Below, piece after piece: positions 7,110 through 59,400 of a stretch of DNA of 64,000 nt (the stretch's first letter is position 1; each line of letters starts with the position of its first letter). Under the pieces are notes generated by a model. That model worked only from the letters and a program-made list of their open reading frames with translations, was not told the DNA's origin and made no database searches. The position numbers and the translations under genes were made by a program. The stretch is from Marsupella aquatica (lineage: Eukaryota > Plantae > Marchantiophyta), in NCBI GenBank assembly GCA_973895155.1, contig OZ316892.1, positions 9,466,283 to 9,530,282 of the forward strand, read 5' to 3'.

Positions 7110-7210
7110 GTAAGTGTTTACGCCTTAGTTTCTACCCTATTTCCACATCGCAATGGTGAAGGTTTTTAATTTCACACCTCTTGTTGTTTGTTTTGGTTTG
7201 GGTGGAATAG

Positions 7211-14103: not shown

Positions 14104-14105
14104 AT

Positions 14106-14117
14106 TGGTATCAGAGC
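14106..14117 (+). promoter_or_regulatory. Primer binding site for initiator tRNA-Met
   Basis: TGGTATCAGAGC 2 nt after the 5' LTR. Confidence 0.95.
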
Positions 14118-14555
14118 ATGCTTGGGAGGTGACGTGTGTTCGTGACGGGATTTCATGATGGTTTTTCCAGCGTTGAGTGTTGGTGGATTATCCAGAGTTC
14201 CATCGCATGGAACTTGGAGTTTATGGGCTCAACGGATAGATCAGGGCAAGAGCTTTCTAACGGTGTGAAGAAATCGTTGAACGGAGCTCGTGGTGCAGAG
14301 AGATCTAAGTTTTCGTCGTTCTGGATTTTGTGAAGAAAGTTGGCAATCGACTCGGAGGGAGAAGCGTCAAGTGTTTTGACTCAACGGAGAGATTGAGGCA
14401 AGACGATTGTTTTTGAGTCCGGGATTGGCTCTTTGATGCAAAGAGGAAGGCTAAGCAAAATCAATTACCTTGTTGGACTTGGTGACGACACCAAGTGCAA
14501 TTGATCAACATTCGTTGTTGACAAGGGGCAGAGAGAGGAGCAGGAGGAAGAGCAC

Positions 14556-18764: not shown

Positions 18765-18944
18765 AGTTTTCTTAAACATTCATTGTAATTACTGATATAT
18801 GCTCTTCCTCATTCCTATGTATTAGGCTACGGCTTAGTTCTGGTTTGCTCTAGTTAGAGAGGGAAACCGGTTTGGTTTCTGTCCAGAACTTCCCGCTGAG
18901 GGATCATATACATTGGCAGTATTACTCTCCCCTAGACCAGAGTC

Positions 18945-18954
18945 AAGGGGAAGA
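18945..18954 (+). promoter_or_regulatory. Polypurine tract
   Basis: AAGGGGAAGA just before the 3' LTR. Confidence 0.85.
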
Positions 18955-18955
18955 T

Positions 18956-19430
18956 TGTTGGGTATTTACTCTTACGTCTAGGTTAGGTATGACGTGGTTG
19001 GTACAACAACGTGGGTTGGTACAACTACGTGGTTAGGTACAACTACGTGATTAGGTACAACTATGTGGTTAGGTACAACTACGTGATTAGGTACAACTAT
19101 GTGGTTAGGTATAACTACGTGATTAGGTACAACTATGTGGTTAGGTACAACTATGTGGTTAGGTACAACTAAGTTGCACACTATATCATAAGAGGCATGT
19201 GTGCTTGGAGAGGTAGAACCAAGGCTCATTGTTATGGAGCCACTTGAGAGATAGGGAGAGCTTACACTGTGGAGACTCGGTATAGCCGACGGGCTTAGAG
19301 TTCAGTAAAGCTCTCTTGTGTGTTCCCGTGGACGTAGCCTCAAGGAGGTGAACCACGTATCTCTTGTGTCGACTATTGTGCGTTGGATGGTTCATGGGCT
19401 TGCCGTTGCGATCGTCGTCTATGCTCAACA
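18956..19430 (+). repeat. 3' LTR
   Basis: Same length as the 5' LTR; only about 2 substitutions seen by eye, both in the 18-bp array. Confidence 0.97.
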
Positions 19431-22400
19431 GAGCATTCCGTCATCGGAAAGGAAAGGGTCCATTGCCCGAAAGAATGATTCGGCTGCTGTGTGATCTGTG
19501 ACATTCCATTTCGGGACCCGACGGTCAACAATTGTGGGTTTCAAACCAGTTGGGAGATAGATGAAACCCGCATTCACCCCAAATGATCGTTCCTTCCCAC
19601 CTCGAATGATTCCTTTATCTCTACACCCCGATTTGATCAAATCCTTACCCCACTTCTCAGCGTCTGAGACCCAATCTGGCTTCTCTTCCTTACTAAATGC
19701 ACTATCAATAAATTCTGCCAAGCTTGATTCAACCATACAGTGTCTTTTGAGTTTGGTCTTGAAAGTCCCCACATCCCGTTGGATACCGGCCCTAGAAGCA
19801 TTATCTCGCGAAGATTCCCAAACATCGATGGTCCTTTTCTTCTTCTTCTTTGTGCTTGTAGCATCCACAGGAACTATAACCTTCCCCTTCTCAACAGGGG
19901 TGATGGGGTCTGGATTGGCACCAGTGTTGGCCTCAGAGACTTCTGGTGTTGCATCGACTTTTGTGTCATCCGTGGCGGCATCAGATTTTCGACCACCTAC
20001 CCAAAATGGTGTCAAGCATAGAAAGAGTGTTAGCGCTAGGCGCTGACCAAACACCCACATTAATTTTGGGAAATAAGACACATTAAACTCACGACACATG
20101 ATAGCGCCAGGCGCTAACAAAGAAGGAAGTCGGAAAAAGGAGGTGTAGATTACGTTTTTTCCCAGACTTGGCACTAGCACTTGCCACAGGGGCATCCGCC
20201 TTGGCTTTGGCTCTTGGTTTTCGGCTTCGATCAACATCAACCACTGTGGTTTCGCATTTTTTTTGCAACTCAGTCGTCGACGAGTTGACGTCCCCCTCAA
20301 TTCCTTGCTTCATGTCGGAGACAAATTGTCTCGGAACTTGGGATTTAGACAGTTTATGGAAAGCATCCTTCTCAGTGTCGTCAAAAGGAGAATCCCATCT
20401 GTCGGTGTCAAGATACCAATGGCAGTGAATTCTCTCCCACTCTAACAATTTCCTCGGTGGAAGTATACCCTCAGCCGGATACATCGAATACAGTTCGGCC
20501 AAAATGTCTCCATCTGCGCAGATGACCCAATTCTGGAAAGCAGTTGGGTAAGCCCAAAAATAGTCAGGCTTCACAATCTCCATGTGCATGAAGAAACGAT
20601 AGACATATCGTTTCGCTTGCTTTTGATTCTTGAGTGTGTAGTCTTCCTTGTCCGGGTACTTGGACATCCACATCGTATTGAAAAACTTACCTTTCACTGC
20701 ATCCCCAAATTTTTTGAAATCATTGCACACTATTTCAACGAGTGAATCATAAGACTCACACTTCCATTCCTCCAATCGATTGGAAGGAATTATTTCACTG
20801 ATTTGCTGGAGGGCAGTCTGCAGCATACCAATAGCAATTCCCTCCACGCTATTCCAAGTTTGCCAAGTGTGGCACCACTACTTCACAGGGTCATCACTAA
20901 CACTTTGTGGATGAAAGAACTGCTTCCTGAGCTCTGGCGTGCAATGCGCTACTAACAAAGTGCTCCTCACTTTGGGGTCGAGGGCGGAGACTGCTGTAAA
21001 TAACCTAGCACGATCCATGGTACAAACAACCGCATCCGGTTTCTTCTCGCGTTTGTTCACCTCGGTCATCGGATACATCTCAGCACAGGTTGTCATGAAG
21101 TCTTCAAACTCTGGACTCAACAAGGGAGTGATCTTTGAGACCTTGATCGCCCAATCTTTCGTTGCTTCTTTCATCATGACCGCATGTCGTTTGGATGTCT
21201 CTTCCTAAGACCAAGGATTTCCCTGAGCGGTAGCCGACTCCATGTCCATCTTGAATTGTCGAGAATAGGATTTAATCTTATTCTCGCATAAGATATACAA
21301 AAGTGCTTCTTGAGGCATTTTCTTGGAATACCATGATCCTTTTCGAGTCTTCTGCATCACCTGCCCAAACTTCTTGAAGTTTGCCCCATCGATGATTGAT
21401 TTGTAGTATTCTAGATCGTTGGACAAAATCCTCTTAATTCGGTCTGCATCAAGTATCCAGGAAGGTTCCACCACGGCCTGTCCAAGTCTACAGAAGAATT
21501 TGTCAGTCAATAGCGCCAGGCGCTAGTAAAACTACGCTATAAAAGATAAGGATAAGTGAAATTCAACGAGAGACTTACTGGTTCACAGTATGCATAGCCG
21601 CCTCAATTTCAATCAAAGATCCCTTTTCACCCTTGAAGATAGTACATTGCACACGCGGGTGATACTTGATATCTTCCGGATTTTCTTTCGTAACGATCGA
21701 CCATGCGTAAAGTCGATGGTTACCGTCAAAAACATAAAACATCTTATCTTGTAACACCATGAAGTCTGGATCGGCCGCACATTCAGCTTCAAACTTCTCG
21801 TTCTCGGCCACCCACATCAGGTCCCAGGAAGCTCGAATTTTTGGAGTACATGTCTGGACATTTCCATTCGAATCTGTCGGCTGGACATAGAACAACATTC
21901 CGATTTTTGAGTTGTATCCTGTGCTACGAAAAGAGTCCTTCAACTTTTCAATTGAAGGACTTCCCTTCTGTAAGGTGCGGACAACTTCCATGTGAACCAA
22001 GCGGCACATTGGAATCCTTGGGGGGTCTTTGTCGTGCCCTCAAAAATCTTTGCCAAACACCATAACGTGCTTGGAGATAACGTCGGACATCGTCAGCGAC
22101 ATTTCTCCTCGATCTTCCATAGCGTATGTGTCAAGATCGTCCATCTTTGCTCTCCTGCTCTTCGGAAATGTGACTACAGAGACTATTTCGGGAGCTTGGG
22201 ATGTTGTAGACCTTGTCACTCGACGACTGTAAACAGATCCAGAAAACGAGCACTCGGATGTCTGCGAATGGATCTGCTCTCTATGCCCGTTAGCACTATA
22301 CCCATGCGAGGTAGTGGGGAGAAGGTCCATGTTTCTCAGACACGAAGTGCTTCACGATCGTGATGAGTACCTCATTCATACCGTACTTCTTCTAGAGAAT

Positions 22401-23283
22401 TCTTGCATGAAGAACCTCCGAAACGGAACCTAAATACAGCGCACAAGGGAGGGGGGGAGAGTATCATCTCTAAACTATCCCCTTGCTACATTGATATCTA
22501 TCTCTTGAGTGCCACTTGTCAATTCTGGATTAGTTGTCCGAATACCGTTGGCATATCTTCGACGTTACGCGACCTAACGTTACCGTTGAATATGACCGTT
22601 AAAGAACAATTCGTTGAATTTAATATATATTCCTAGTTCAAATCTGATATTGGTCAATAGTAGCGCCATGCGCTACTCAAAATCATCAGAATTTAAACCA
22701 TAAAATTTCCCAAAGTTAGGTCAACATTCACCCTCAAGTTACAATAAAAATCCAAATGAATACAATTTTTGAATATTTTTCCATAAATGAATGTCATGAT
22801 TACCGTTTTGGATTAGCGCCCGACGCTAATATTAAATGGGCACATTTTGGTAATATTTTAGATAATATTAAAAAAATTAGCTACAAACATTTAGTATTTA
22901 TTCTGAAACCCCGGATAAAACATTCCATTTTTATACCATAATTTACGGTGTGTGTTTGAGTAGCGCCTACTCATATATTTCACCATTTTGGGTCCATGTT
23001 GAAGGTAGGATGTTTGAGTAGCGTCGGGCGCTACTCAATTAACATGATTTAATTAACATGATTATGCTCTTTGGAAATGGACATCTTAGGCTCATTAGTG
23101 TAAATGTCGTTGACATAACGACAAAAAACATTTATTGTGTCAGATGTGCTTTCGACCGGTAGTGTTTCTGTCGTATTATAACGGCTCTGACAAACGGATT
23201 ATTCACTATGAATACCATTGTGTACATTCGAAGACGTCATTCATTATTGTGAACTAAGTGTTTTTGGGTTGGATGATCTTAAA

Positions 23284-26200
23284 ATGTCAAGGTCAATCGT
23301 TCTGACGCGTCCGTCTACCGGTGACCTTGTATCCATTCCATTATCGGCCAATGACGTATACAAGCAAGTTAGTGAGAATTATCTCTGTGGGCGCTTTGGT
23401 TTGCATTTGAACGACATTGAGGACATTTTGGAGGAGGGAAATGGAGATGAAGCGTCTAATTTCACTGCTTCTTTTGATGTTGATGACGGGATTCGTTTTT
23501 GGCACCTGAATGCAGGAATTCGGTATTCTATTGTCATTCAAAAACCAGTCGCATCCGATCTCCCATCTTCATCCAAACCCTTTGTTGATGTTATCCTGCT
23601 TTCAGATAGCGACGATGATGGACCTGCTTTGCCTGAGCGTAGTGCTAAATCCCCTCACACCGTTGTTAAACAGGAGGTTACCCCTGTTAAACAAGAGGTT
23701 ACAGCAGTTTTTACCAAAAATTCCATTGTGTATCGGAGAAGTGCAATGGATACCATTCTCAAGTCAACTGGTTCCAGTGAAATCTTGAGGTTCATCGCGG
23801 CTGGGGACTTCTTCCATGAACAAGTTGACTGTTTGCCAAAGAAATACATTGATGGAAATATTGTATTCGAGTTGCCTCCTGCGACGGCAGCTCTTTCGAA
23901 GGGGTCACGTCTACGCGACATGGACCGGTCAAAGGATTGCTACATCTGGACCAGAATATTTCCTACATCAGCTAATGTTCATCCCAAGAAATATTGGGAA
24001 TTTGGTAAAGTAACGTGCACTGGTTCCATTGAGTGTAGGAATAATACGTGCGACTATTTTTAGTGGAAGAAATGGAGGAACCAGAAGGCCTGGGGTGGAA
24101 CCCCCAAACTTGGCGGGCAACATCGTGTTGGCTCCTTCATTGACGAAGGTGGAGTTGTTTGCCAATTTTGTGATCAAGTTCCATTTTGTGTCCAATCCTG
24201 TCGAGCAAGGTTATTTTACATGTACCCCCAGGTTCTAGTTGACTCAGAAACCAATACTCACATGTCCCGCTTGGCAATTCATATGGGGATCCACAACCAT
24301 CCTTCAAGAAAGGTGTTTTCTCGGAGCGCAGAGAAGATTGTTGAGGAGGTTATCAAAAAGAAATTGGAAGGAAATCCAATTTTCACCCCTGCTGGTGTAA
24401 AAAATGTGGCGACAAGGTCCTTTGTAAAGTCCTTGTGTGAAAGTATGGAAGATATTCAAGATATTGAAGAAACAGAGATATTTGAGTCTCTCATGGTAGT
24501 TTCCACACCCCAGAAGTTTGCGTCCCTCTTTCGTAGTGTTAGACAGGACCAGAAAGGTCGAGGTGAACTAGATTTTCTTGTTCGGTATCAAAGAAATATC
24601 AACATGCCTTTCCTCCAAAGGTACCTCCTACCAGGTCAAGGATCTCAAGAAGACCGTCCTCACATATTCAAGATGACTTCGATCGGCCATGGATCAGGCG
24701 TCGATCTTTTGAGACAAATGCAACCTGGTGGAAGTCTCAAAGGTGCTTGGGTAAGTTTTGATGTGATGAAACGGCTTACAAAAGACTGGGTTACTTTTAG
24801 TGCGCATATTTATGATCACAACTATCGCGCTCTATGTACCTTATTCACCTGCGAACTAAAAGCAGAGGATACAGAGTCGTTCAAGAAGGCTTGGAGACTA
24901 ATGATTGAGGTGTCCAAAGAGAATGGATTAGAAAATCCGATTATTCATGGATTCATGGCGGACAATGCTCAAGCTGGTTGGCTGGCAGTCCGAAATGTCT
25001 TTTTTGGAGGGCATCCAAACCCTGAGCATGAGCGAACTGACGCATTCCATTTCTACCAAGCCTTCCATCGCCATTCGATTGAAGGAGTGATTGAAGATAG
25101 TCAAGCAGAGCATCGTAGGCTTTGGGATAAGATGCGAAATGCCCCCACGTTTGTAGAGGCTTACAGAATTTCAAGGGAGATTGATTTGTGGTGGCAGTCG
25201 GGTAACTGTGTCCCCGGGAAGCTCCGGATGCTCCAGAGTTGGATTTCATGGTGGGTCGTCAGGTGGAGACAATGGGGAAATTTTATTCGTTTGGTAAGTT
25301 AGTTTACTTTGCTTTCCGCTCTTTAGGTATTGCAGTGCTATATTCTCATTTCAAAATGTTTGTATCCATATTCAAATATTACAATACCATAGCATCCTTT
25401 AATACTAGCGCCTGGCGCTATCATTTATTCAAACTGTCATATGACACAATAGGACGAAATAATTTGTCCCTTAATGTACAGTGCCAGTTTTGACTTCTAG
25501 GGACAGAGTCCACTTCACTAGCGCCCGACGCTAGTGTTTTCTTGTTCTGTAACAAACACTTTATTCTATGTGATTGCAGAACAAGAGTGTCAAAGAAGGG
25601 GCTAAGATTCCTAATTGTACAGGATCAGAGTCCGTGCACGCAGGTATGAAAGCATGGGTAATGAAGAAAAAGGTTGGGCTCTTTGAGGCATGTGAAATGG
25701 ACCAAAATCGAGCTATTTCTCAGGTTGCTGCTTACACTGCGTATCGGAAAGGGTTGCATAGAGGAAAAGGTCCCACAATTTGGGAACTCGCTTTCCGATC
25801 AGCGGACCAAGCAGGCTCCCCCAAGTTGTATGAAAACGCAATGAATATGCTACTGTCCAACGCTGCCAAGTTTGACTTGGAGAGACATGCACCTCTCAAT
25901 GGAGACGTTGTCACCAAGTCTTTGAAGAGGAAAGGACATGCATCTGGGAATATCTCACCACAAGACTCCCATAGGCATGATAAAATCCTTGTCACCTCGC
26001 CCAATACTAGATCGATGAAAAGGAAGAATCTTAATCGCACGGCGTTTGATGCTATCCCTGGCCCCATGCCTCAAGTTGATCCTGTTGTTAATTTGTCTGG
26101 AAGTGACATATCGGGCGGTGGAGAAGATGTTGATTTCAATACCCCTCCTGCTCGAGACCGAACGCGTTCAACGAGGCTTCCCCAGACTGCTCCCTCCGTG

Positions 26201-27106
26201 CTTCAGTAACCGTTACAAGAGTGTCCTGTCCGTGAGACGGAGGTTGCTCTAGCTGCATGGCAATTACGTCGAACTTCAAAATTTGGCGCTGGTCCTCAGT
26301 GCAACGGATCATTTTCCCGTAATTCTGAAAGAGATGAGTGTCGCAATCGCGTGAAAAAAGTTGGATTTCCCTCACCACATGGTGTTATCGGAATTGTTGT
26401 CAAAGGTCAACGGATTTTCAGGGGGGAACCCATAACCAAAATGATTTGGTTTTGCCCAAACAATACATGTTACAGAAGCCGCCCGCGTCGAGGTGTCTTG
26501 AATTTTCCCCCTTTCCCTCATGTTCTTCCCGTTTTGAAAGGGACAAATATTTCGAAGGACGAGCTGCAATATCTTCTTGACAACGGAATCTCCCTAGTGC
26601 GCGGAAATGAACTTACAACTAGACCCCCGTCAGATTTTGATCTTCGAATCAATGTCAATATCTTTATAGAACATGTGAATCTTCTCAAACCCAATGTTCG
26701 TCTCCGAAGCCGGAATGGGAGGAATATGGTTCCTCGGTCAAATCTTACCCAGGGTCACATGAACAGAATTGCGTTTGCAAAAAAACAGACGATGTATATT
26801 CAGGGAGAGTGGGATGTTGCGATTGGGAATGCATGGGGAAAACAGTTTAAAGTGCAAACGCACGAAAATATGCGGACGCCAAATTGTTACTTTGTTCAAA
26901 TTTGCATTTTCCCCACTTGCTCGTGTGAGGATTTCTACCGGCGACATTCCCGGAAACATCCATATATGCCTTGCAAACATTTGTATTGGATTTTCCTTAC
27001 CGTTTTCAAACTAGACGTTGAGGAATCTACATTGACCAGCCAACCAATTCTCATTGTTGGAGAGGTTTGGCTCATATTAGAGAGGCAAAATGCTCATCAT
27101 TTATAG
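23284..27106 (+). pseudogene. MULE-type DDE transposase with N-terminal WRKY/GCM-like Zn finger and C-terminal SWIM (exons about 23284-25293 and 25580-27106)
   Basis: Motifs CQFC..C...IHMGIHNHP, VSFDVMK (D1), FMADNAQAGWLAVRNVF (D2), DAFHFYQA (CxxH position), GSESVH (E) and SWIM CSCEDF..PCKH. Listed ORFs join in frame across stops at 24061 and 26207 and a GT-AG intron at 25294-25579. Confidence 0.8.
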
Positions 27107-27649
27107 CATGAATCATGATGATGTAGGTTGTATTATTGGTCAAAACGGTTATATTGATTTTGTCGTATGTCAACGGTATAGTGTTATTGATGTCGCGTCA
27201 TGTTTTGTTAGCGCCAGGCGCTGGTAAATTTTTCGTCTAGGCTACACCGTTAAATGTCATTGTGTTGTGATTTATGTTCTCAACGCCAACTATTTGTTTC
27301 CTTGAATAACGATAAGATAGCGCCACGCGCTAGTCAATCCGTTGTTCGCTTTTATTTTGGACCACATAATGACATAAAGTTTTGGGCTGCGTTGATTTTG
27401 TATTATTTTCATATATTTTGTTGCCGATTGTGGTGGGACCTACCATTTTGTGCGCATTCCTTAACATTTTTATGTATGCTCCCCCTTGTTTGTGTTGGGA
27501 TATAAGGTTCAATTATTATGTGGTTCAGCAATTCATTACAAGGTATCCTCCCTCACCGCAATGGACTAACTCCAACTTCAACAATTCTAAATTGCTGATT
27601 GTGTGTTCTTTCCCCTGGTACAAGATGTTTTTTCCTGGTAACAGCATAA

Positions 27650-27678
27650 GGCAAACAGGAAAAGTATTTCCTGTTTGC
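27650..27678. other. Subterminal hairpin of the MULE
   Basis: GCAAACAGGAAA-agta-TTTCCTGTTTGC, a perfect 12-bp stem about 20 nt from the right end. Confidence 0.8.
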
Positions 27679-28907
27679 TGTCTCCGTCGCTATACCCTTG
27701 AGGACAAGTGCCACTAGTTTTCAAGCATCTCATTGGCAAACGTCAGAGCCATTTACTTTCCCATCTCACTTGGAGCAATGTTTCTACGTTCCATACCCCT
27801 TAGACCCAGAGTGGTCACTTGTCATCACATATGTGCCACGGTCTCGTTCCATTGTTTCAGACAAGCCAGACACTATTTTTGTGTCAGATGTAGAGGACAT
27901 TGAAGGTGACCAAGTGTGAGAGACACTTATGGATATTTAAACCAAAAATCTATATCATGGATTGTTCATGTTGTTTCTTAATTAATATTTCATACACCAT
28001 TAGTGTGGTAGGTATTTTCATTTTGGACTCCTACTTTCAAAAGAGGTCATGCATATAAGTGACATGGGTACTCCCTCCCTTATCCCTCCTCCCTCTTTGA
28101 ACCCAAACTCTCCTTCCTCTTCCAAAAACTCCATAGCTTTTTCTCCTCCCTCCCTCTTCGCTAAAGTCTCTCCTATTTTTAGTAAACCCTCTTTGGACTC
28201 CCTTCTTCCTCTGTCCCTCATCCACCTTCCAACTCCCTTCCTCCCTCTTTCACCTTTCACCTCCCTCCCTCCTCCTCCCCCATTCAAACTCTAACCTAGA
28301 TGCACACACAAGTCTAACATAAACGTTTGCGAACTGTTTGCGAAACTAAACAAATCCCAACCAAATCGCAATTCTGCCATTTAAACCGTTTCTCAATTAT
28401 TCCATACTATACGCTTCACTATTTTGCGATATCCAGACCATCTCACCTTTACCATCCACATCGTTTCGCACATTTGCCATACAAACCCATCGCAAATTGT
28501 TTGAAGCTAACCTTTTCGCAAACATCCTCCAATACTAATTGTTTCGCATCATTAATGTTACCGTGGTTTCGGACTTTCAGCGCGGTCGCGGAGCCTTCGT
28601 AATGTGTTTTGTAATCTCTGTAGTTTCGCAAAATATTGTGATACAATAAAGTTCCCAAAATGTTTGCGATGCAAATCGCATGGAAGACCAAAGTTGCGAT
28701 ACCACAAGTATCGCAAATTGCGATGCGTATTGAGTCATCAACGGTTTGAAGCATCTGGAATCGCAAACGTGTGTCCGGACGCAAATGAGCTTCGCAAAAG
28801 GGCAAAATATGTTGTAGTGAATTTGCTCGTCATGCATATGCAAGTGCATTTGCTCAACTTTTCAATGTACATATTTTCTGAGTGAAAGCATGTGTGTGCA
28901 TTGCAGG

Positions 28908-45204: not shown

Positions 45205-47859
45205 CAGCCCTGGGCCCTCACTCTTAGCATATTAAGTGAACCCCCCCGAGAACAGAACCCCCCCCTTGTACCCCTTCTTAATATTTTTATTGTCATTAAA
45301 ATATCTCTTGTTAGTATAAAAATATTAATTTTCACTGTTAAATTTGACCCTTTTGTAACTTATAAAAGAGTTTTTTGAGTAATAGAAAACACCCTTGACT
45401 TTTTAAAATTATGAATGTCATATAACATGTAAACAATTCAAAAACATAGATGGTATTTATACCTGGACACTTGAGAGTGGATCCACTATGTTCAAGTATA
45501 CTTTTATATAGGTCAATAAAATTAGACCAAATAATAGTATCTTTGGTTGCTTATAGACCTCATAAAAGTGAACTAAATTAACACTAGAAGGATCTAACAA
45601 AGGGAAGATTATGCTCTACTACCCTGGTCAGGAGGAATAATGGCATGATTGTATACTAATGCTAAAATAATTTATCCTGAGATTGGGCTTGAGATAAATA
45701 GGGCACGCCTTCAACCCTTTGCACCAAATGTTCAGTAAAGTTCTTGGCAGTTTCTTTTGAACCTGATGCATCAAACCATAGATTAATAGTTGATTTTAGA
45801 CAATACTCATAACACAAGGAAATCATTACTCAGAAATATGGAAATAGTACCATCAGATTTTCTTTGGCTGTAATTATTACTTAGACATGGTGGGTAATTT
45901 TCCTGTCATCTCTGCAATCAAACAATTGATTACAATATAAGAGACAATATCAAAATCATATTCAAAGCCTTTCATAGTAATCACATACTTGAAAGGTACA
46001 TACAATAACATTGAAAGTTGCTTACCCTATTGTATAAGATTATTGAATTTTGTTTTTGGCAAAATTATCAAGAGCAACTGCATCATCTGGATGCAATTGA
46101 AAAATTCCTGGACATAGTGGATCCACTGTCAAGTGTACTGTTGATATAACACAGTCCAAATCGATGAATTGTGGATCACACACATTGTAGGCAAATTTAT
46201 GCCTACTAGTTCCAATCCGAGAAAACCATTGGAACATAATTTTACATGCCTCCTCACCACCAGGCCTATCAAGCAAATCCAAATCACTTCTTGCTCTGTC
46301 CATTTTCCCACCATATTTTTTGTGTATAGATTGAATTCTGCCTATCCACCACATATATTTTGGTGTCGTACTTGAAGACATTACCACAGCTGCACCTTTT
46401 GGTCTCTTTGGATTTGGAAGAGAATCGTCTGGTCTACTGCCACCTCTCTTTCCTCGTCCTTTTCCTCGCACTGTTCGTGAAATTGCTTCTGAACTTCTAG
46501 TTTCAGGAGCACTGTATGTATCATCTAGGAATAGTACTCCACAGTCGGAACCTACTGTAACAAACATTGTTTGAGCACTTGCTCTAACATTAGGTTTGTC
46601 CACTAAATTATTGAAGTAGTGATTTTGCTTTATCCGAGTTAATCTGTCTTTACTGAGGAGAGGGTTGAGGGTCAACTGGCTGACCAAAGTACTTTTGTAA
46701 ATTGATCAATTTCGGTATTCTACTGTTGGCTTCACATCCTGTTTTGCTGCTCCATATATCAAGTCAGAATGCATGATCCCCATGGTGGCCTCCATTTGAC
46801 CAGCAACTCCCTCTACATCTGGGTCTGTATATATCAAAAGTTGTTCTATTGGGATAGGAGACTCAGAGTCCTCTTCTGCAACTTCTGTTTGAGCCAATAA
46901 GGATGCACGCTCATGAGAGGTTGTTTGACCTTCCTCAGATTCCTCCACATCCCGCCCTCCATCTACTAATGTATCAACATTCACATCACACCAACTACCA
47001 AACTTGACCCCTTTAGCTTCCATCTTCCATGGGGAATTCCACCACACCTTGTCTCTGCAAGATGTCACTAGTACATTTTAGGGTCATTTACCGATATTTA
47101 CACCATCGGACGCCTTCGGAAAAATGCGACGCCATTTTTGAGGTTTCCGATTCTAACTGGATCGCTCTGTCCGATACTCCCAGAATCGGATACGGACCAT
47201 CGGACCTGTTTCGGACCACCCAATACCAATACTATCGGACATTGCATATCTAGTGCAATCGGATACATTAGCTGTCCGATGTCACAAGAGCCGGAAGAAG
47301 CCTCTCCTTGCACTAGGTGAAGATCTGTTGTCCGACAGTTATCCGTATGAATTTGCAAGGCATATTGCCTTAAAATCCCCATCGGACATTGCGATGGTGG
47401 AATCAATGGATGTTCCGATAGTGTTGGTATGGGAATTTGACATATAATTTGTATCGGAACATACGAAATGGAGGGATTCGGAAGCAATGGAGGGGTGCGA
47501 TAGGAGAAGTATCGAAAGATTACTCAGGAAAGACCTAGCTTCATTGCAACATTTGGTTTCTTGTGGGGATTTTTTCTGTTGGGGTTGAGGGTGGTTCTTG
47601 GGGGAATTTATGCAATACAACATAGAGGGATTTGTTAAAGATGTTGAAGAGGTATTTGAAAGACAATGCCAATAGAAGTAATTAACACAAGAAGGATATA
47701 TGGCCACAAAGGGTACTCAAACTCCAAAAGGGAAACATACCCCAAAATGTACAAGAGTGATCCAAGTACTGGGATCACAAAAGTAAGCACATCCAACTCC
47801 TAATCTCGTCTAAGTCTAAGGCTACGCAGTATGTCTCTATCTATCTAAGCTAGTCTAAG

Positions 47860-50800
47860 TCAAAATGGAGCATGTCGTCCCTTCCTCTTTTTGGAATGAG
47901 TCCGAGGTGGTGGGGGTACAATACTAGTCTGGGCAGGAGCCTGGGTGAATGGGGGCTCGTCCATGGTGACTTGGTCCACAACATCTGGCCCCTGTGTAGA
48001 GGTCATAGGAGGCACTGGACCCACGCCACCACCACCACCATATGACGCTAGGGAGTCATGGGAAGGTCCGCTCCCCCCACTTGCATGGCAAGTATGAAAG
48101 GAAGCTGCACCACCCCCACTAGCCCCATTGCCAACGGACTGCCGTGATGTACCACCCCCGCTCCCTCCTGAATGGCCAAGGGCAATATGAGCACCCCCAG
48201 TCTGGGTTGAAGGGTGAGAGACACCAACTCCACCGGCTGTACTCCCTCCTAACTGGCCAGGGGCAGGTCGACGACCCCCAATGCGGCCTGAGTGGTGAGA
48301 GACAACACCGACACTACCTCTACTCCCTCTACTCCCTCCTGACTGACCCTGAGCACTAACATCGCCCCCAATGCGGCCTGAGTGGTGAGACACACCACCG
48401 ACACTAGCTCTACTCCCTCCTGACTGACCAAGAGCAGTAACATCGCCCCCAATGTGGCGTGAGTGGGGAGAGACACCAGCAACACCACCACTCCCTCCTG
48501 ACTGGCCAGGGGCCCTAACACCACCCCCTGTCGAGCCTGAGTGACGAGAACCTCCCGAGCCACCCCCATCTGCACCAGAGTGCTGTGAGCCTCTAGAACA
48601 CCCTTCCCCATGAGGCTCTAATCGGCCAGACTCACCAACAGCATGTCGCTCATCTCGCGACACATGCCGAGTGCCTCGAATATCAGCTCTGCCACTAGCC
48701 CGTGACCGGCGCCGGGGACCCTCACCACCTGTGCCAGCAGCCCGTGAGTCACGTCTGCCACTAGATCCAACCCCTATGGCTCTAGGCTGGTGAGGGGTCC
48801 CACTAGCACCACCCCTACTGGTCCTAGTATATGTCGCACGAACATCCGCTATAGGGCCACGACGGGTCGACTGAAGAGCCCTAGCACTACCCCTAACTGT
48901 ATCAGACCGGCGAGGAGGGGGTATGGCCACAATCCCCTCCTCTGGGTCCGACGACTGTGAATCAGATTCGTCGGATCCCCCACTGCTATGCCCTGAGCCC
49001 TCGTCCGCCGAGTCCTCACCCTCCGATCCCTCCTCGTCTGAGCCCTGCATATATCCAACCAACCACCCAAATTAGTATACGCTTTTTAGAAATAAACTTC
49101 AACACCCCATTAAGACATTGCATTAAAAATAATCTCCTTACCGAACCCAGCTCCTCCTTCAAGTGAATCCGAAGAGCCCGTGGTCCTTGTTTCTTAGCCA
49201 ACTCCCTCTCTTTTGGCAATATTGGTCGCCCATGCTCGCGCTCCTGCCCCCCTCAAAAAATGCACCGACAACCAAATTAGTCCCAATTAGTGCCACCGGG
49301 TCACACCCCAATTAGATCCACACTGGATCACTCACCCCCAACATGTTTTAAAATGGACAATGGAACCAACCACGATAATCCGCAAGGGTAACCGTCAAAA
49401 AATTTGAAAATTCAAATTGTCCGATTACTTTCCGATTGTTTGTCCGATAGCATAAAGGTCGGATTGGAATCGGACACGACGTCCAAAAAAGCCATAGCAG
49501 TATTTCCGACTGTCCTTCCGATTCTACTACTATCGGACCACAATCGGAAATAGGGCCCCGACAAAAAAAGATGGAGTTATCGATCGCATGCATAGCGCGC
49601 TTGCAAGGCCCGCACGGCTTGACAATAAGAGGGGACTTTGGGCCGGGGCTCTTCAGGCAAAGAAGGGCCTCAGGTGATCAGGTGAATGGAGGGAAGAGCT
49701 TGGAGAGAGGAGGTGGAGTCTACTTACAAATTCTGCCTTGAGACGCAGCGACCCGCCCTGCCCCATTCTGTGAGTGACTACTGGGCTGTTCTCAACTCGA
49801 ATCAATGCCTTTTGCATATGTGAGGGAGGGTCCCCAAGCTGAATTGACTTTGCATCCCAATGTTGCAGGTTTTGATCAGCATGGCGGGTGTCAATAGTCT
49901 CCCCTACCTGGGCCCTCACTGCAAGGACTTCTAGCTCAGCTTGCCAGTATCTCCTTGCCTGCCAGGCTCGAACCTGCAGCTCGGTCTCAATCCAAGCTGG
50001 CCATACCTCCACAGGAATATCATTTGGGCACCCTTTTTGCCTGATCACCTCCTCACTGTCCTTGCACTCACCAAGGTACTTCCTCAGCTTCTCCCTGATG
50101 TGATTCCTTCTGTCTGCAAGGGATAGACTGATTTTCTTGTTTAAGAACCTGTCATCAATGAATGAGCCATTGCAAAAATGTTCCTTCACCTGCTCACGAA
50201 CTCTGAACTTCTCTCTTTCCTTTTTCTTCCCCCAGTAATCTAACACTCCAAAATGGGATCTAAGTACTTGCCCAAGCTGACTCCTGAAAAGATTATAGCT
50301 CTTGGCCCTCGGAGCTCCTCCCTCATTCAAATAAATTTTTGGCCTCTTGCTTCTCTCCTCTGCTCGCAGCTTCTCCTCCTCGGCTCTTTTCCTATCTGCA
50401 GCCCGTGCCTCTCTACGTAAGGCCTTCTCTCTCTCTCGTGGTGAGAGGGCCTCCACAGGTACAGTCTCCTTCTCCTCCCTTCTCTTCCTCTTCTTCTCTT
50501 TCTCCCTAGTACGCTGCCTCTCCTCAAATGTTTTCTGAGCTTCAGCAAGAACAGTGCTCCTAGAAGAGTCTAGCAATCCTTGTGTCAATGCAGCCACCTT
50601 TTGCGCATGCTCTATGGAGAGCCCTACCTGCTTATGGAAAATTGCAGCCATGATCTCCCCAAAGTCTTCTGATGGCCCTGCTCCATCCCCAGTAGCTCCT
50701 CCAGCCCCACCTTGTCCGGCTCCTGACCCTCCATCTCCACCATCTCCTTGCCCTCCAGCTGTTCCTCCGAATTCTATTCCTGTCCCTGCTCCTGCCCCTC

Positions 50801-50873
50801 CCCCAGCCCCTCCATCGCTCCCCTCCATAGCCATTTGCTCTTCGCTGCCGTGCGCCACGTGCTTGTTTTTCAC
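47860..50873 (-). CDS. TnpA-like/accessory protein of CACTA-C (exons about 50834-49726, 49245-49142, 49044-47860)
   Basis: Same layout as in CACTA-A/B (Gly-rich start, coiled coil, THRMGQGG, small middle exon); expanded Gly/Ser-rich repeat last exon ending RHAPF*. Confidence 0.7.
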
Positions 50874-51736
50874 AAAGACATGAACTCCCGACTGTTTTTC
50901 GATGCAAAGCCCGACTCAAGTGCGTTCGCACTTAGGTCGGGTGCCCTAAAAATGCTTCCAACTACTCATCCGATTCTATTTACATCGGAAATTCCCATTA
51001 AAACTGTATCGGAGATTGTATCGGATGAACATCGGACCCCTCCTGCGAAGCACTAACCTAAGGCTCTTCCGATATAGAGAACATGGTAAATGAAGTTGGT
51101 CTTTCTTTGGATGACACTACGTTGGTTCTATGTGTTGGCCAGGGGTTCTACGGATAGGGCGGACCATCGGAGCCGTGGTATCCCGAGTCACATGCATGAT
51201 TTTGGAGGTGGTTGGTATGTATAAGGGTTGCGGGTTATTGTTAAAGGTTACTCCAAATTTTTAGGGTGGCATTTAATTTGGAGTGCCAAATACAATTTGA
51301 CCTAGCTAACTTTATGCATCTTGCATTCGGAATTTTGCAGTTCCTTTTTGCGGAGGGTTAGGTTATTGCGATTATTTTGGGTCCATTTTTGCAATGCATC
51401 ATGCACAGTGAGAGCCCGCACATCTGAAAGGTATTACCACCTCTACAATGTGAGCTATATTTACTATGAAGCATTACCTATAATTACTATGAATTATTGA
51501 TATTGGTGTACCCCAATTAAGCTCAAGTGTACTTGTGCAGCAATTTCAGATTTGTCTTAGAATATAATCTAAGGCCAAGATCCTAGTCGGCACTGCAAAG
51601 CGCGGGTCTCATTCAGGTATTATTGATATGAAAACATCTATATGTTTTTTTTGCCTTCATATTTATTGCATTGGTCTTACATATTTAATTCCCACAATGG
51701 CACATAAAAGGTTATTTTTGTATGGGTGATGGACAG

Positions 51737-51970
51737 ATGTCTTCTTCCGAGAGTTCAGAGTCGGATTTTGACTCAACCTCTTCATCTTCTGAGGGGGACA
51801 TTCCTCCCCCCCCCCCTCCAAGGCTTCAATGTCCTCCTCCTCTAGGACCTATTCCATGTTGGTGTGCCCGATGTAAAGGCATGGTGGTTCGTCAAGCCTG
51901 GGAAGCCATTGAGCATATTGAGAACTATGGCAGACACGAGGGCAATTTACCAGGATATTCTACTCGCGAG
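51737..51970 (+). CDS. Exon 1 (Zn-ribbon-like) of the SET/TnpD gene of CACTA-C
   Basis: MSSSESS...CWCARC...HIENYG; phase-0 donor GTATGC at 51971. Confidence 0.78.
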
Positions 51971-52068
51971 GTATGCACAATTAATTGCTCTTGGAGACAT
52001 TGACATGTACAATTTGCCACATTGCACCCATACATTTATTAATTGTTGGTTTTTTTGTGATTGAATAG

Positions 52069-52985
52069 GTGCCTCGTAGGACCCCTCCTCCATTGGTCTC
52101 TAATGACTTATGGGTAAATACGCTTTTGGCTGGTGCAAGAGAGTTGCTTGCATCATCATCAGCTCCCTCTCCATCTAGCCCCCCCGTGTTCAGCCAGAGA
52201 GTGTAGCAGTTCCATCTAGGGTTGGACGCACCCGAGCACGTTCCCAGAGACAACGTCGCAGTTATGAACCCTTGCCAGGCACTCATGAGATTGAGGAGCA
52301 AGTTGTAGGCCGTACTCTTAGAGTGCCACCAGGAGAGGACTATGTGGAAGTGGAAGGGAGGTTGGGGTTGTCATATGTCACCGAGAAGGCATTGACAGTG
52401 TTGAAGGATTTCTCGTCTGATAGATTCAAAATACCCCCTGGCCTAACCACTGATACCCCTATCCACATATGGGGTCACCAATGGATAGTGAAGGCGTCTT
52501 CCCTTGGCCCTGACATAGGATTTGGGGTGTTTGCCTTGGAGGACATTGTGGTCCCGCCCAAGCCGTGGCCCCGAGGTTATGATGGTGAGCACCTATTTCC
52601 ATACATTGGTCCTGTGTATACTTCAAAAGGTTGGAACATTCTATTGCGCCAACACCCATCGTGGGGTGTCTATGCATTGCAAATGGATTCTGATCCAGAT
52701 GAGCTCATACGGAGGCCTTGGCATTCTCGGATGATTGATGGCGACCCTGTTCGCTCCGATAATATAGCTGGGTACATCAATAGTACTCGTGGTAGAGGGA
52801 GAGGACTTAGGCCTAATGTAGAGTGGATTCAGATATTTGGTCCACCTAGAGAGCCTTACTATGTAAAACATATGGATGATCATGTCATGACTGTAGCCAT
52901 TACAACCATTAGGGCTGGCCAGGAGTTGTTTTGTGACTATGAGTGGGATAGGCCCAAGAAAGCATTGCTTTCTCGCCCCATGTAG
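52069..52985 (+). CDS. SET-domain (lysine methyltransferase-like) exon of CACTA-C
   Basis: Full set of SET motifs: GFGVFALEDI, LFPYIG, IDGDP...NIAGYINST...RPN, IRAGQELFCDY. One frameshift in a C7 run at 52179-52185, upstream of the domain. Confidence 0.85.
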
Positions 52986-53227
52986 GGCAGACATATATGT
53001 ATATATACCACCTTTTTGTTTAACATAAAATACATGATACAGGTTTTCAAACTAAATTGGTTAGTTGTGTAAGTCAATCTTTGATCAAGGTTTGAAAGTA
53101 TACTAGTAGAATGTGTAAAGAGAATTGTAATTTTGCGGGGAAACCAAAAAGCCTATACCTTTAAACACTTGTCTCATTGCATGTGGCCCTTCTAATATAA
53201 TATGTATGTTAATTTGTGAAATGTTAG

Positions 53228-56200
53228 AATGCATATGTTCAACCAGATATGGGGGTATTATCACGAGCAATGCGGCAACACCTTGTTGAGGCCATGGGTG
53301 ATTGGCGTAGGGCTCAAGCATCAGAGAATGAAGATGCCCCTCCTGAGCATGTGTCTAATGCCACCGAAGATAGACTTGAGGAGGAGAGGGCCATGGATGA
53401 TCTTATGCACCAGTTCTATGACGTGGAGGATGGTGACCATGATATGGGTGATGCATTTGACACCAATGCACATCCTCATGGTGGCAATCCTTCACAAGGT
53501 TCTTCCTCTAGACAATGGGAGGAAGCTCGTGACCATGCGCAAACATGAATTTTTGAGGGGTCACAACTATCTCGGCTCTCAGGAATAATGTTATTGTTGA
53601 ACTTGCAGCAAAGACATGGAGCAAGCAATCTCCTTCTTGATGATCTCTTCAGGACCTTGCATAGTCGTATTTTGCCAGAAGGGAACTGCTTGCCTAGTTC
53701 ATGGAAAGCGGCAAAAAAGGTGTTGAAATCCATAGGCCTCAAATACGAAGTCATACATGCTTGTGTGAATGATTGTGTTCTGTTCAGGGGCGAACACAAA
53801 GATGCCACTACATGTCCTACATGTGACCAACCGAGGTATCGAGAGGACATGCTGACTGGAAAAGTAGCACAGAAGGTCATGAGGTATTTTCCTCTTATCC
53901 CCAGATTACGGCACCAGTACCGATGTGCAGAGTTGGCTGAGTATATGGTGTGGCATTCCAAGAACCGGTCAGATATGAGTTCAGATCGGCCAACCATGCG
54001 TATGATGGTGGACTCACTTGCAAGTAGGTTTGTGGAGGACCGATGGGGTGACTTCAAGACAGACCCACGTCATGTACGACTAGGTTTGGCATCAGATGGG
54101 ATCAGCCCCTTTGCATTGGCCGGGAAGGCCCAACCATACTCAGTTTGGCCAGTAGTCCTTACAAATTACAACATCCCTCCATGGATGGCCATGAAGAAAG
54201 GTCATTTGATGCTCTCAATGATTATCCCAGGCCCCAAGCAAGTAAAAAAGATTGATGTTTACTTGCAACCATTGTTGGAGGAGCTTCAACAACTATGGAG
54301 GGGAGTGGATTGCTATGATGGTCGAGTGCTGACGGGTGGTTTACCTCGTGAATTTAAATTAAAAGCCATCGTTATGTGGACCATACATGATCTTCCTGGT
54401 ATGTTAAAATATACCTTCCCCAATATTATGCATGGTTTTTTATGGTAGATAATACACTATAGGATAATGTTATATAAAAAAGTTTGTCTGGCTATTGTTT
54501 AATGTATTGATTGTGTGTGTTGTAGGATTTGGATATATCTCTGGGTTGCAGACATCAGGATACCGAGCCTGCCCAACTTGTGGTCCTGATTTGGAGGGAG
54601 TGGCACGCCCTAAGTCTACCACCCTACGGAAGATAGTTTACATTGGTCACACAAAGTATCTCCCCCCAGAGCATGAATGGAGGTGTGACCCATTCTTATA
54701 TGACACGGATGATGGCCAACCAGACACACGCCCTCAACCAGTGCCAAGGGATCCACACTATTGGAAGGAGGTATGGGATAGAGTGACAGACCCAGATGAT
54801 CCCTTACCATTGGCCTGGTGTGGCATGACTCATTTTTCTGCATTAATGTCAAAGCTGCCATATTGGGCTGAGATGCCAATTAACCATTTGTTTGACCCTA
54901 TGCATATTGAGGGGAACGTTGGGAGGTCATTGATTCGCCATCTATACGGAGAGAAAGACAACAACTGGAGAGAGAGTTGTGAGGAGATGGGGATGCATGG
55001 TCCTCATGGTTTTTGGCCATCTATGGATCCCCCTAATGGCCCCCTTACTATTCACCCTCCTTGGGTATTGACCAGAGGTGAGCGGATTGAGTTCCGCAAT
55101 CGTATAGGGTCAATGAGGTTTCCTACGGGCTACGGGGCCAATCTGCGCAAGGCATTTGGGGGACCAGACTGTCCACGTTGGCCAGCTTTCTTGAAGACCC
55201 ATGATTACCATCGTCTACTACAACATGTCATTCCAGTGGCCATCATTGGATTGGGTAGTGAGGATCTTCGTGATGCCCTGTGGTCATTAGGTAAGCTCTT
55301 GAGGTGGGTGTGTCAAAAAGAGGTGAATGAGGATGAGATTGCAGCTATGGACCTGTTTGGAGTGGAGGTATTGTGCAAGTTGGAGAGGGCACTCCCTCCT
55401 TCATTCTTTGATGGCCAAGTTCACTTCCTCCTACACCTAGTGCGTGAGGTTGGCATTGCAGGGCCGGTACATTGTCGTTGGATGTACTAGGTAGAGCGGT
55501 TTATGGGAGTGATGAAGTCATATGTGTCAAATCGTGCGAGAGTGGAAGGTAGCATCGCTGAGCGTCATCTTGGAGCAGAGAGCATGTTTTATTGTACAAA
55601 CATTGTAGCTACACTTGATCCCAGTGCACCAAGGGGGTGGATAGACGAGGCATCAAGGGAAGCCGACTTTGAAGATGACCGTCTTACAGGGGCAAAGGGA
55701 GAACGACTTTTGGGCTCAGCTGAGCGCCTTCAAGTCACTACATTTATGTTGTATAACTTGCCTGAGATTGCGGGAGATTGGACAAATTTTTATGAGGAGG
55801 AAAAGGCAAATAGTCATCGGCCACACATCTTCCCCAAGTTTGTCCCATACATGAGGGCAAAGTTGACCGAGATTGATGCCTTGTTGGAGCAAGGGGAGAG
55901 CGTGTCAGACTTCCATTTGGTTACAGACAGCCTTCGCACCTTGGTTCATGGACCATTACTCACGGTGACAACTCGGACCGCCATGTGGTCAAAGGGAAGG
56001 CATTTTTGTGTGCAACGGCTTGATGATAAGAGGGCAGCTACACAGGATTGTGGGGTCATGGGTTGGTTCACCCAAGATTCACAAAGTAGCACATCTGATA
56101 GGAATCCAATACGCTCTACAGTGGCCCACTATGGCAAGATTGAAGAGATATTGACAGTGCATTATCATGCACACACCACTTTGGAGGAGGTGGTGTTGAA

Positions 56201-56483
56201 GTGCAAATGGTTTTGGATGAACCTTGTTGGCCATAACCGAACTTGCAAAGAGGATGCTTGTGGGTTCACACGGTTGAAGACAGGTACAAATAGTGTCATT
56301 AGCTCAACTTGGAGAACCTCTGATCCATTTGCATTCCCCCACCATCTTGAGCAGGCCTTCTATCTTCCGTATCCCGATGATCCTGAGTGGTCCATTGTCA
56401 TGACTTATATTCCACAATCACGATCCATCATCCAGGAGCAACCCAATGTGGTTGTAGTTGAAGATTTGGACCCCGTGCCTTGA
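53228..56483 (+). pseudogene. CACTA TnpD/Tnp2 transposase of CACTA-C (exons 53228-54398 and 54526-56483)
   Basis: Motifs IHACVNDC, RLGLASDG, NIPPW, DPMHIEGN, KTHDYH, GPVHCRWMY and a DUF4216-like end; single-codon stops at 53546 and 55488. Confidence 0.94.
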
Positions 56484-59400
56484 GGTCCTTGCTAGCTAGT
56501 GTAACTTGGGATTAATCGCGTAGGACCCCTCCATATGTTTATTTTTACCGGCATTATATATATCATTGTTGTATTTCATGTTCCCTCTACTATGAAAGGG
56601 ACCAGATTTCTTAATAAAAATATGAGTATTTGTTTTCCACACCATATCCGATACAATGAACATCGCATAATTGTCAGAAATATCTTACCTTAATTCTGAA
56701 ACCTTGTCCGATTCAGTCTGCATCGGACCCCTCTTAACAGTTATCGGATACTTGTCCGATACATTTCCGTTACTAATCTTATTGGAAGACATCCGATTCT
56801 AAATCTAACGGAAAGAAGGACCGTTTACATTTGCATCGGAAGGTTAACATGCGATTCAAAAAGAATGGCAAATTGCGTTACTATTGAAGTCGGACAATTC
56901 CGATGCATTTCCGATTTGTTTAGTATCGGACGGCTGAGCTGTTGCGATATCGGAGCATCGGAAAAATGCTGAAAATGTACTAGTGTGTGGAAGGGTTCAT
57001 CTGTAACTCAGTGCACGCATTTTGGGCAAGTTGGAAACCTTCTTGTAGAGCAATCACTATTTCTTCATTTGTTTCAATCCCTGCATAGTCTATTTGATCT
57101 GCTACAATAGGAATCCCTATCGGGATTGTAGTGAGCTTCATCCAAATGTTTTCATGTTTTTTGTGGCTCTTCCCTGCACCCATCATTCCTTCAGCCAGAT
57201 CCATTGCAGCCAATCGATTTCGATTGGTAGCACATTCTACTAACTCAGCCAGGTCATAACTTTGTTCATGACCATTCATACCTCCTACAGCAGAGAAAAA
57301 CTGCTCACAAACATCTGACCCAGTCAAATGCAATGGCACTGGAAGATGTCGAAAATTGTCCCTAAATTGGATTACCAATAGGACCACAAAATGAACTGAC
57401 ATCTGAATGTCAAGGAAGCTTTGCATGGGAATGCAATTTTTTGTGAAACTGATTGGTTGTGTATTCCCTCCCATTGAATGGTTTCCATGAAAGCACCATT
57501 GACGCCATAGTCTAAAGAAGAACCCAACCTTCCCACAATGGACAATCCTCTGTCGCAAACTCAGACTAGTGTTCAGAAATATGTCAATGTAGTCTGCACA
57601 TATCCTAGTGTAAACTTCTGTTCCAAGAGTCTGTTCAACTCTTGCATCACCATGTTGACGAAGCATCCGTAAGGAGGACTGTACTTTGCGGCTACATAGT
57701 CGTTGTGCACTAGCCCAATTTTGCCTATCTTTCCTTGACTTGTCCTCTTCATTCAAGCCATGATCACTATTCAGGTACAATTTGTAACAGGTTATGATGT
57801 GACTGAGGTTCGCCATTTCTGCTCCTAATTTCAAAATACGAGAAGTGGAATCCAATGGGTTCACTAGCTTCTTCCCATTATGAATAAAGTCTTGATCATG
57901 CAACCCATATGCATGGATCAATGGTCCAACAATGGTCATAGAGTGGGTCAATTTCCAAGCTTCCCACCTCAGGTCCTGCCTTGGCCCCGGTATCCCACTT
58001 CCAGAGTAGTCTTCCAACATAAGCTTTCTCCTCCGTGCATCCCCATCGCTAGCATGACCCAATAAGGGTCCCGCTGACTCTAGGCAATGTGTAGTCCACA
58101 GTGACGCTAGGCTATTCCATTGTCGCCTGACCCATGGAGCATCAAACTTGTTACATGTGCCAATCCCCATGATGCATAATCGAGGAAACCCAGCAACAAG
58201 GGCATTTACTATCAAACATCTTGCCTGGTGCGCTACAACATAATTGTCAAAGGCATCTGCAATGTTGTTGAAGCCAACTTCTCCTTCCCCCACTAGGATC
58301 TCCAAGCCAACACTACACTCATGGTCAATTTTTGTCCCACAAAATCCAAGAAGGGTGTCATGTTTGGGCAACCATCTGCAATCAATAGCAGGTGGGCTCT
58401 TCATTAGTTGTGTTCAATTTTTGTGTGTACCACAAAACAATCTTGAACAAAAAGAATAACCAGAGCAAGAGGAGTAAATGAGTAGTCACCTCACAGTCCT
58501 CTTCACACAAGTCTCATCCTCTGCCAAAAAGCATGGAATGGGTCCTTGTATATTTAATCGAGCTTTCAGTTTGGAAAATATTTCCGCAACAAACTGAAAT
58601 TGCTCTGCATGAATTCCAGCACGAAACACTGCCATGCCTCTTCGGTCCCGTTGAAGGGTGTTGATGGTAGGACCAATTCCATTGGTTGCAAGACAATCAA
58701 CAACTCGCCTTCCACCATGTAAAAATAGTGTTTGACAAAGGAGCTTGGTTCCCGGCTTAAATCGATATCCTGTCTTTTCCCTATTGATGTTTTGTGCTAT
58801 GTCAGACAACATATCCCATAGAGCTCCTCTCCCACCAAAGGCACCTCGTTTGTGTGCCAATATTATTGAGTGACAAAATTTCAACAAAATTGCTTTGTTT
58901 GGTTCCTCATAGTGAAGACACGCTTCACTAATATTGGGGACTAGAGCCTGTGCCATGAGCAACTTGTGACTCAAGATTCTTTGCAATTTTCGCTCTCTCA
59001 AAACTTGGTTCCTGTAACTTTTAGCCTGATACTGGACCTCTGGAATAGTCAAGTAATCTAAGCGCCTACCTTTCCCAGTTGTTCTAGAACCTCTTTTCTC
59101 AAGAGCTTTGTACTCCCTGTAAACCCTGAGTCGAAAATCCTGCTCTGTTTTTATGCTAAAACACTGCGAGCAGGTCAAGTCTATAAACCCACCACCAAGT
59201 TCTGATATTCGTCTACAATCTTTGTGTCTAAATAAACCAGAAATCACACAACTTTCCTGAGTTATCAAACACCACACCTCTGCCCTCACTATGGGCTCTG
59301 CATACCAGTTGCCATCTAATTTAAGCTGGTCATTTAAGATCTCCTTGATAGGCCTGGTATCTGAACCATATTTCACCACATCACGCCATAGACCCCAACA

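Follow-up and report, generated by a model that had tools for sequence, protein, structure and literature searches.

We investigated a window of 64,000 nucleotides from the liverwort Marsupella aquatica (contig OZ316892.1, positions 9,466,283 to 9,530,282, forward strand; the window is this whole stretch), in which a complete CACTA element, CACTA-C, carries an exon for a predicted SET-domain protein inside its transposase gene. CACTA-C occupied 47066..56985 on the plus strand and was inserted in a long interspersed nuclear element (LINE), as established by a scan for paired element ends and an empty site. Its 14-bp terminal inverted repeats (TIRs; 47066-47079 and 56972-56985) were identical at 14/14 positions and were the only perfect pair with a matching duplication in the scan for paired CACTA ends. 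The flanking target duplication was TGT, 3 bp on both sides. The empty LINE site was seen in contigs that joined 47062 to 56986 in 4/4 runs. Subterminal TCGGA/TCCGA repeats were found in CACTA-C by repeat counts. CACTA/EnSpm elements are defined by TIRs that begin with CACTA and end with TAGTG (PMC4158355). CACTA-C had such TIRs, a 3-bp duplication and a TnpD-type transposase, which was encoded downstream of the SET exon and contained Transposase_21 (PF02992, E 7.7e-40), DUF4218 and DUF4216.

The exons were located on the plus strand. Exon 1 (51737..51970) had 78 codons with a Ser/acidic start and a CxxC-type segment resembling Transpos_assoc, and a phase-0 GT donor followed at 51971. The PF13963 match to exon 1 was weak (E 0.019, in copy B). 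Homologues of exon 1 were present in two other CACTA elements of the window, CACTA-A and CACTA-B. The SET exon (52069..52985) had a phase-0 AG acceptor and its own stop at 52983-52985. Exon 3 (53228..54398) encoded the TnpD-type transposase (Transposase_21) from a further phase-0 AG acceptor, and the last transposase exon (54526..56483) encoded the end of Transposase_21, DUF4218 and DUF4216. Premature stops were present in CACTA-C in exon 3 (53546-53548) and in the last exon (55488-55490). Related contigs read a different letter at 53548 and G at 55489.

A sequence-only reading of this DNA had recognized a set of SET motifs, and all of them were confirmed within the open reading frame (ORF) 52179-52982 on the plus strand: GFGVFALEDI, FPYIG, IDGDP...NIAGYINST...PN and IRAGQELFCDY. 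The match to PF00856 had an E value of 3.2e-6 (28-28.8 bits against a cut-off of 22.4), and 42/64 aligned family members matched this profile at E<=0.01. The SET domain (52521..52940, plus strand) contained GxG, YxG, YIN(S), PN and GxELxxxY, with the codon of the terminal Tyr at 52938-52940. The N-flanking region (52335..52520, plus strand) was family-specific and Cys-free, with conserved columns R9, P34, W46, G47, W50 and S55. In the structure model, it was packed with the SET core at a predicted local distance difference test (pLDDT) score of 93-98. The model as a whole showed a pLDDT of 91.7 and a predicted template modelling score (pTM) of 0.87. A Foldseek search of the PDB confirmed the SET fold (E 1.8e-7; 273 matches at E<=0.001, all SET proteins among the matches listed), and the top matches were LegAS4 and SET8. 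Upon alignment with VIA-align, Set1, EZH2, ASH1L, SET8, SET7/9, NSD2 and LegAS4 were tied (Z 11.1-12.2, root mean square deviation 2.2-3.5 over 117-140 residues). The substitution of NST for NHS and the absence of Cys-rich pre- and post-SET clusters, both remarked on in the sequence-only reading, were also borne out. Host-class flanking domains (CXC, AWS, PHD, SRA, Cys pre/post-SET) were not found, as only PF00856 was matched in 64 members. Such class-specific flanking domains are described for the plant SET classes E(z), Ash, Trx and Su(var) (PMC5725981).

The same reading had also reported a homologous, truncated exon at the same position in the diverged CACTA-A. The homology and the position held. 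The SET exon of CACTA-A (7211..7950, plus strand) was in the same place between exon 1 (6876-7109) and exon 3 (from 8072), all in phase 0, and showed 43% identity over 176 residues (E 2e-42). Its 3' end was lost, and the truncated exon (7211-7948) was without the last motif. The truncation was a different matter. The last SET motif followed by a stop was found in 15/24 fetched loci, all of A type, so the missing end in CACTA-A was damage to one copy. It was also considered that the truncation was a splice donor into the transposase, and this was rejected since A-type loci keep the full motif and the stop. When six frames of the window were scanned with the family profile, SET exons were detected only in CACTA-C and CACTA-A.

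An exhaustive search recovered 85 clusters at E<=0.001, of which 56 also passed E<=1e-10. The SET-exon family accounted for 84/85 representative matches, and none had NH. The family profile was built from 62 of 126 stored proteins and the two window copies, and all but 2 of the 126 scored at least 40 bits on it. Named members came from the liverworts Calypogeia fissa and Riccia sorocarpa and the fern Ceratopteris richardii. The homologue P0001 was matched at TM values of 0.71-0.73 by SET proteins from Streptophyta in two Atlas clusters. In a tree of 57 rows, comprising family members only and without those shorter than 140 residues, CACTA-C grouped with P0001 and P0002 of Calypogeia (100/99), and CACTA-C and CACTA-A were within one clade of 14 rows (100/99). 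Several diverged members (P0070 and P0076 of Calypogeia fissa; P0118, P0124 and P0125 of Ceratopteris richardii) were annotated as host genes, and these may be pieces of transposons or have been domesticated. Some of the entries that liverwort and fern annotations name 'SET domain-containing protein' are likely to be products of transposons.

Selection was estimated as the ratio of nonsynonymous to synonymous substitution rates (dN/dS, method NG86), using the two window copies and 6/23 family loci that were selected for having an open core. CACTA-A against the 6 loci gave values of 0.18-0.21 (bootstrap limits 0.10-0.35), and locus L001 against 5 loci gave 0.28-0.33 (limits up to 0.62). The transposase stretch used as a control gave 0.08-0.10 between subfamilies. 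Among recent copies of one family, 10 SET pairs had dN/dS values of 0.37-2.1, and 3 pairs of the transposase control had values of 0.34-1.19. The sequence-only reading had taken neutral evolution across copies as a sign against it. Values near 1 were literally seen among recent copies, where they are expected from decay after insertion, and between subfamilies the values were those of purifying selection. Since the transposase control was likewise relaxed among recent copies, the comparison is informative only between subfamilies. CACTA-C against the A type was saturated (proportion of synonymous differences, pS, >0.75), with a ratio of nonsynonymous to synonymous proportions (pN/pS) of 0.50-0.53. 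For the SET ORF in related runs, 17/31 variants were synonymous against 23% expected (p 1.5e-4), where the list comprised the best-supported 40 of 180 rows, the variants were linked and transition bias was uncorrected. These results indicated that the SET exon is under purifying selection between subfamilies.

These data were weighed against the alternative that the exon is a neutrally decaying fragment captured from a host gene. The relaxed values in recent copies, the frame break of CACTA-C described below, the truncation in CACTA-A and the absence of the exon from CACTA-B would fit a fragment. However, the low dN/dS between subfamilies and the same position in CACTA-A at 43% identity contradict it, as does the restriction of the representatives to the family. 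There was no sign of a recent host-gene donor, and a single-sequence search of the PDB, which includes plant ATXR5/6, gave 0 matches at E<=10. The captured fragment is therefore largely refuted and extremely improbable. Narrow pattern scans found the family in 0/52 pattern stretches of viral contigs and in 0/57 of prokaryote genomes. The viral fold matches were generic SETs with 13-23% identity in 18 rows at E<=0.001, and they speak neither for nor against a viral origin. As the sequence-only reading had proposed, the SET exon is, judged by its shared position and by selection between subfamilies, an ancestral, retained part of its CACTA lineage, which we assign to non-seed plants.

Conservation of the S-adenosylmethionine (SAM) motifs was examined in alignment A3 (64 rows). 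The GxG Gly (G64) was kept in 58/59 members, the Asn N149 in 56/63, the next Ser in 61/63, the PN Asn N161 in 61/61, the Glu E197 in 50/52 and the terminal Tyr in 47/51. The YxG position (column 52602-52604) was Tyr in 45/62 and Phe in 17/62. The GxG, YxG and terminal ELxxxY Tyr of canonical histone lysine methyltransferases were present in the family. The roles of GxG and the terminal Tyr are described in PMC10653858 and PMC6379669, and the terminal Tyr is a mark of enzymatic SET domains (PMC6379669). The fold by itself does not prove activity. Because the catalytic residues are kept under selection, the SET domain of intact copies would rather likely be an active SAM-dependent methyltransferase. 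The roles of the other SET motifs are general knowledge. In other SET enzymes, a change of the YxG Tyr to Phe alters the number of methyl groups added, and by analogy the SET subfamilies may differ in their methylation product. That Phe, the family-wide replacement of the NHS His and the missing post-SET region could also mean that a weak or dead SET fold was kept as a lysine-peptide binder or as a decoy against host silencing methyltransferases. However, the retention of the GxG Gly and of the terminal Tyr, the mark of enzymes, makes such a decoy distinctly unlikely.

The layout of the exons was determined in 23 of 24 metagenome loci. The locus left out was L024. Its small SET (491-928) was canonical, had NHSC and ended in a Cys tail; it was unrelated to the transposon family and had been caught by the pattern scan. 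Exon 1 was upstream of SET in 10/10 loci that had 520 nt or more of flank, and its donor GT was present in 10/10. Exon 3 was downstream of SET in 15/17 loci with at least 250 nt of flank, and its acceptor AG was present in 14/15. The two misses were L017, whose sequence was cut inside SET, and the distant, short contig L021. In both CACTA-A and CACTA-C, phase 0 was found at all three sites, that is, the exon-1 donor, the SET acceptor and the exon-3 acceptor. Exon 1 was joined to SET in the gene models P0001, P0022, P0026 and P0077, which included Calypogeia fissa and Riccia sorocarpa. The models from these two species and P0022, together with Riccia models that continue into the transposase, are independent support for the layout. 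Because of the phase-0 layout, we infer alternative splicing, and it is quite probable that exon 1 would be spliced to the SET exon, with translation ending at the stop there, or would skip this exon and be spliced to exon 3 to give the transposase. SET might instead be one domain within a single protein in which it is fused to the transposase. The automated Riccia model P0049 joined SET to Transposase_21, and P0055 and P0074 extended into exon 3. However, CACTA-C and the A-type loci have a stop after the last motif, exon 1 can join exon 3 directly in frame, and several fused models lose the terminal Tyr, so that a fused protein is very unlikely.

Upstream of these exons and transcribed away from the transposase was ORF2 (49656..50915, minus strand), which was divergent, conserved in CACTA-A, CACTA-B and six loci, and TnpA-like by position only. 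ORF2 gave no Pfam match above the cut-off, and a fold search with a model of pTM 0.44 gave no match at E<=0.001. It was mostly helical, with 29-36% identity between C and A types. Its copies were at 49656-50915 (-), 4364-5554 (-) and 40006-41094 (+) in the window and in L005-L007, L009, L022 and L023.

From the layout, one promoter would give two products that share their first 78 residues. Skipping of the SET exon would yield the transposase, and its use as the last exon would yield a small SET protein. This protein would methylate histone lysines and thereby let the element escape silencing, and it would be targeted to the element via the common exon-1 segment or the putative ORF2. We chose histones as the substrate and anti-silencing as the role by analogy with VANC and TnpA and in view of the solved structure matches. 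That the SET exon encodes a small histone-methylating protein that keeps the element active is a tentative proposal, somewhat short of an even chance. The combined scheme is more doubtful. In it, an old bryophyte and fern CACTA lineage would make, from one alternatively spliced gene, both its transposase and its own histone methyltransferase of a distinct His-less SET class, steered by exon 1 or ORF2 to the element to overwrite host silencing.

An active lysine methyltransferase may instead act on a non-histone substrate, namely the transposase of the element, ORF2 or a host silencing protein. The same residue conservation and selection would fit, SET7/9 and SET8 tie with the best structure matches, the SET protein has no chromatin-reading domain, and ORF2 is rich in Lys/Arg. 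SET7/9 and SET8 also act on non-histone proteins. However, most of the solved structure matches are histone enzymes, and we regard a non-histone substrate as unlikely. It could also be that an active histone methyltransferase writes a repressive mark (H3K27/H3K9) and damps the element or neighbouring host genes. Structures of EZH2 and of the Su(var)3-9 type are matched no less well than those of the activating classes, and Polycomb repressive complex 2 represses bryophyte transposons (bioRxiv 10.1101/2022.10.24.513474). In contrast, the known plant transposon regulators VANC and TnpA counter silencing, and a repressive role has a correspondingly small chance.

Several observations weighed against an element-encoded histone methyltransferase that counters silencing. 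In the structure comparison, no SET class was favoured, and no histone mark can be named from the model. No DNA-binding or reader domain was fused to SET, and longer fused SET proteins numbered 0 among 2536 candidates, which is weak evidence. The splicing was deduced from the DNA and from automated gene models. Most loci are copies within a single family, so they stand for few independent lineages. Motif III was matched in 96/126 stored proteins, with NS/QS in 91, other residues in 5 and NH in 0. The usual motif III of canonical histone lysine methyltransferases is NH(S/C). LegAS4/RomA of Legionella (PDB 8swi, 5czy), the best profile and Foldseek match, likewise lacks the motif III His and a Cys post-SET, and its motif III is YINFS with Phe at the usual His position. 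It is an H3K14 trimethylase (PMC10653858), so the missing His does not rule out activity. On its own, the SET domain of RomA has no activity unless the ankyrin repeats are present (PMC10653858). The SET-exon protein has no such repeats, and by analogy a minimal SET does not necessarily function by itself. Identity to LegAS4/RomA was 21-28%, its Z was tied with those of eukaryotic SETs, and the comparison gave no sign of direct descent from it.

The state of the copies pointed in the same direction. The first 110 nt of the SET exon of CACTA-C (52069-52178) were in a different frame from the SET ORF. The frame changed between ~52153 and 52210, and a C7 run was located at 52179-52185. The 5' part agreed at 22/28 positions with the beginning of P0011, a homologue that is continuous. 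It was considered that the break was private to CACTA-C, and this was not borne out: contigs crossed it without a gap at depths of 471 (X1), 97 (X2) and 530 (X4), taken from the listed rows of a longer table and with depth not equal to copy number. The break therefore seems common to a multi-copy subfamily near CACTA-C. CACTA-C might yield a SET protein only via the in-frame AG at 52177-52178. Both window copies of the SET exon are damaged, and the exon was intact from acceptor to stop in 4/11 loci that covered it whole. Because CACTA-B is without the exon and the frame-broken subfamily seems to have multiplied, SET is apparently not needed in cis.

SET-bearing transposons are known, and a SET exon within a land-plant CACTA transposase gene is an unusual layout. 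SET genes have been published in HarbingerS, oomycete MuDR and Helitrons (PMC12730594; bioRxiv 10.1101/2025.02.11.637652). These likewise place SET on a DNA transposon, in other superfamilies and hosts, and are described as accessory genes. Plavaka PAG2 of red algae likewise has a PF00856 SET on an element of the EnSpm/CACTA superfamily (bioRxiv 10.1101/2025.02.11.637652), in another lineage and as a separate gene with SET fused to a DNA methylase. Both comparisons were made by description. Unlike PAG2, the SET of CACTA-C is an exon inside a transposase gene with Transposase_21. Alternative splicing gives rise to regulators in Spm elements, and TnpA has an anti-silencing activity (bioRxiv 10.64898/2026.08.24.746577). 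En/Spm TnpA/TnpD thus likewise derive a transposase or a regulator from one transcription unit (same preprint). The alternative product of En/Spm is a helix-turn-helix DNA-binding protein, whereas that of CACTA-C is a predicted SET protein. The main text of that preprint names no SET or methyltransferase domain, and its survey of 962 Spm structures may do so. VANC of VANDAL elements is a plant transposon protein that acts on the chromatin of its own element, which is the role proposed here. However, it acts by sequence-specific DNA demethylation, has no SET domain and belongs to the MuDR superfamily. A literature search of listings and abstract openings, of the top rows where many papers matched, and of sources other than Repbase Reports, subscription journals and bioRxiv supplements turned up no report of a SET exon carried by CACTA elements of land plants. 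Such an exon is likewise not described in the accessible text of PMC11982613 or of PMC5725981, the latter without the string 'transpos'. Anti-silencing factors encoded by plant transposons themselves are known, and no paper was found showing what a transposon SET methylates. If the proposal is true, this would be a transposon-encoded histone writer in land plants. In bryophytes, where Polycomb repressive complex 2 represses transposons, the family has small members that are intact and under selection, and with these it can be tested directly whether a transposon writes its own histone marks.

Other elements were located in the window. CACTA-A (2820..28819, plus strand) was a diverged relative with the target duplication AAT, and its transposase was interrupted by approximately 16 kb of nested insertions (~11274-27697; 11274-27697 within the transposase). 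Inside it, a Copia-like retroelement ORF (14505-18761) lay between the two near-identical copies of a direct repeat (13629-13928 / 18956-19255). CACTA-B (~33900-42856, minus strand) had TIRs in common with CACTA-A and carried exon 1 and ORF2. Family searches gave no SET match in it and no transposase match after exon 1, and it is likely a deletion derivative or an interrupted copy. Its interior held a further ORF (35949-38393) framed by TACGATCT repeats. In CACTA-C, a low-complexity Gly/Ser repeat ORF (47863..49071, minus strand) gave no family match and is likely a later exon of ORF2. Five tandem 81-nt repeats at 48140-48550 coded for the Gly/Ser-rich part of this minus-strand ORF. Repeats of the TCCGATAAATTTATCGGA type and 71-nt tandem copies were found at 30397-31224, which suggests the end of another CACTA-like element.

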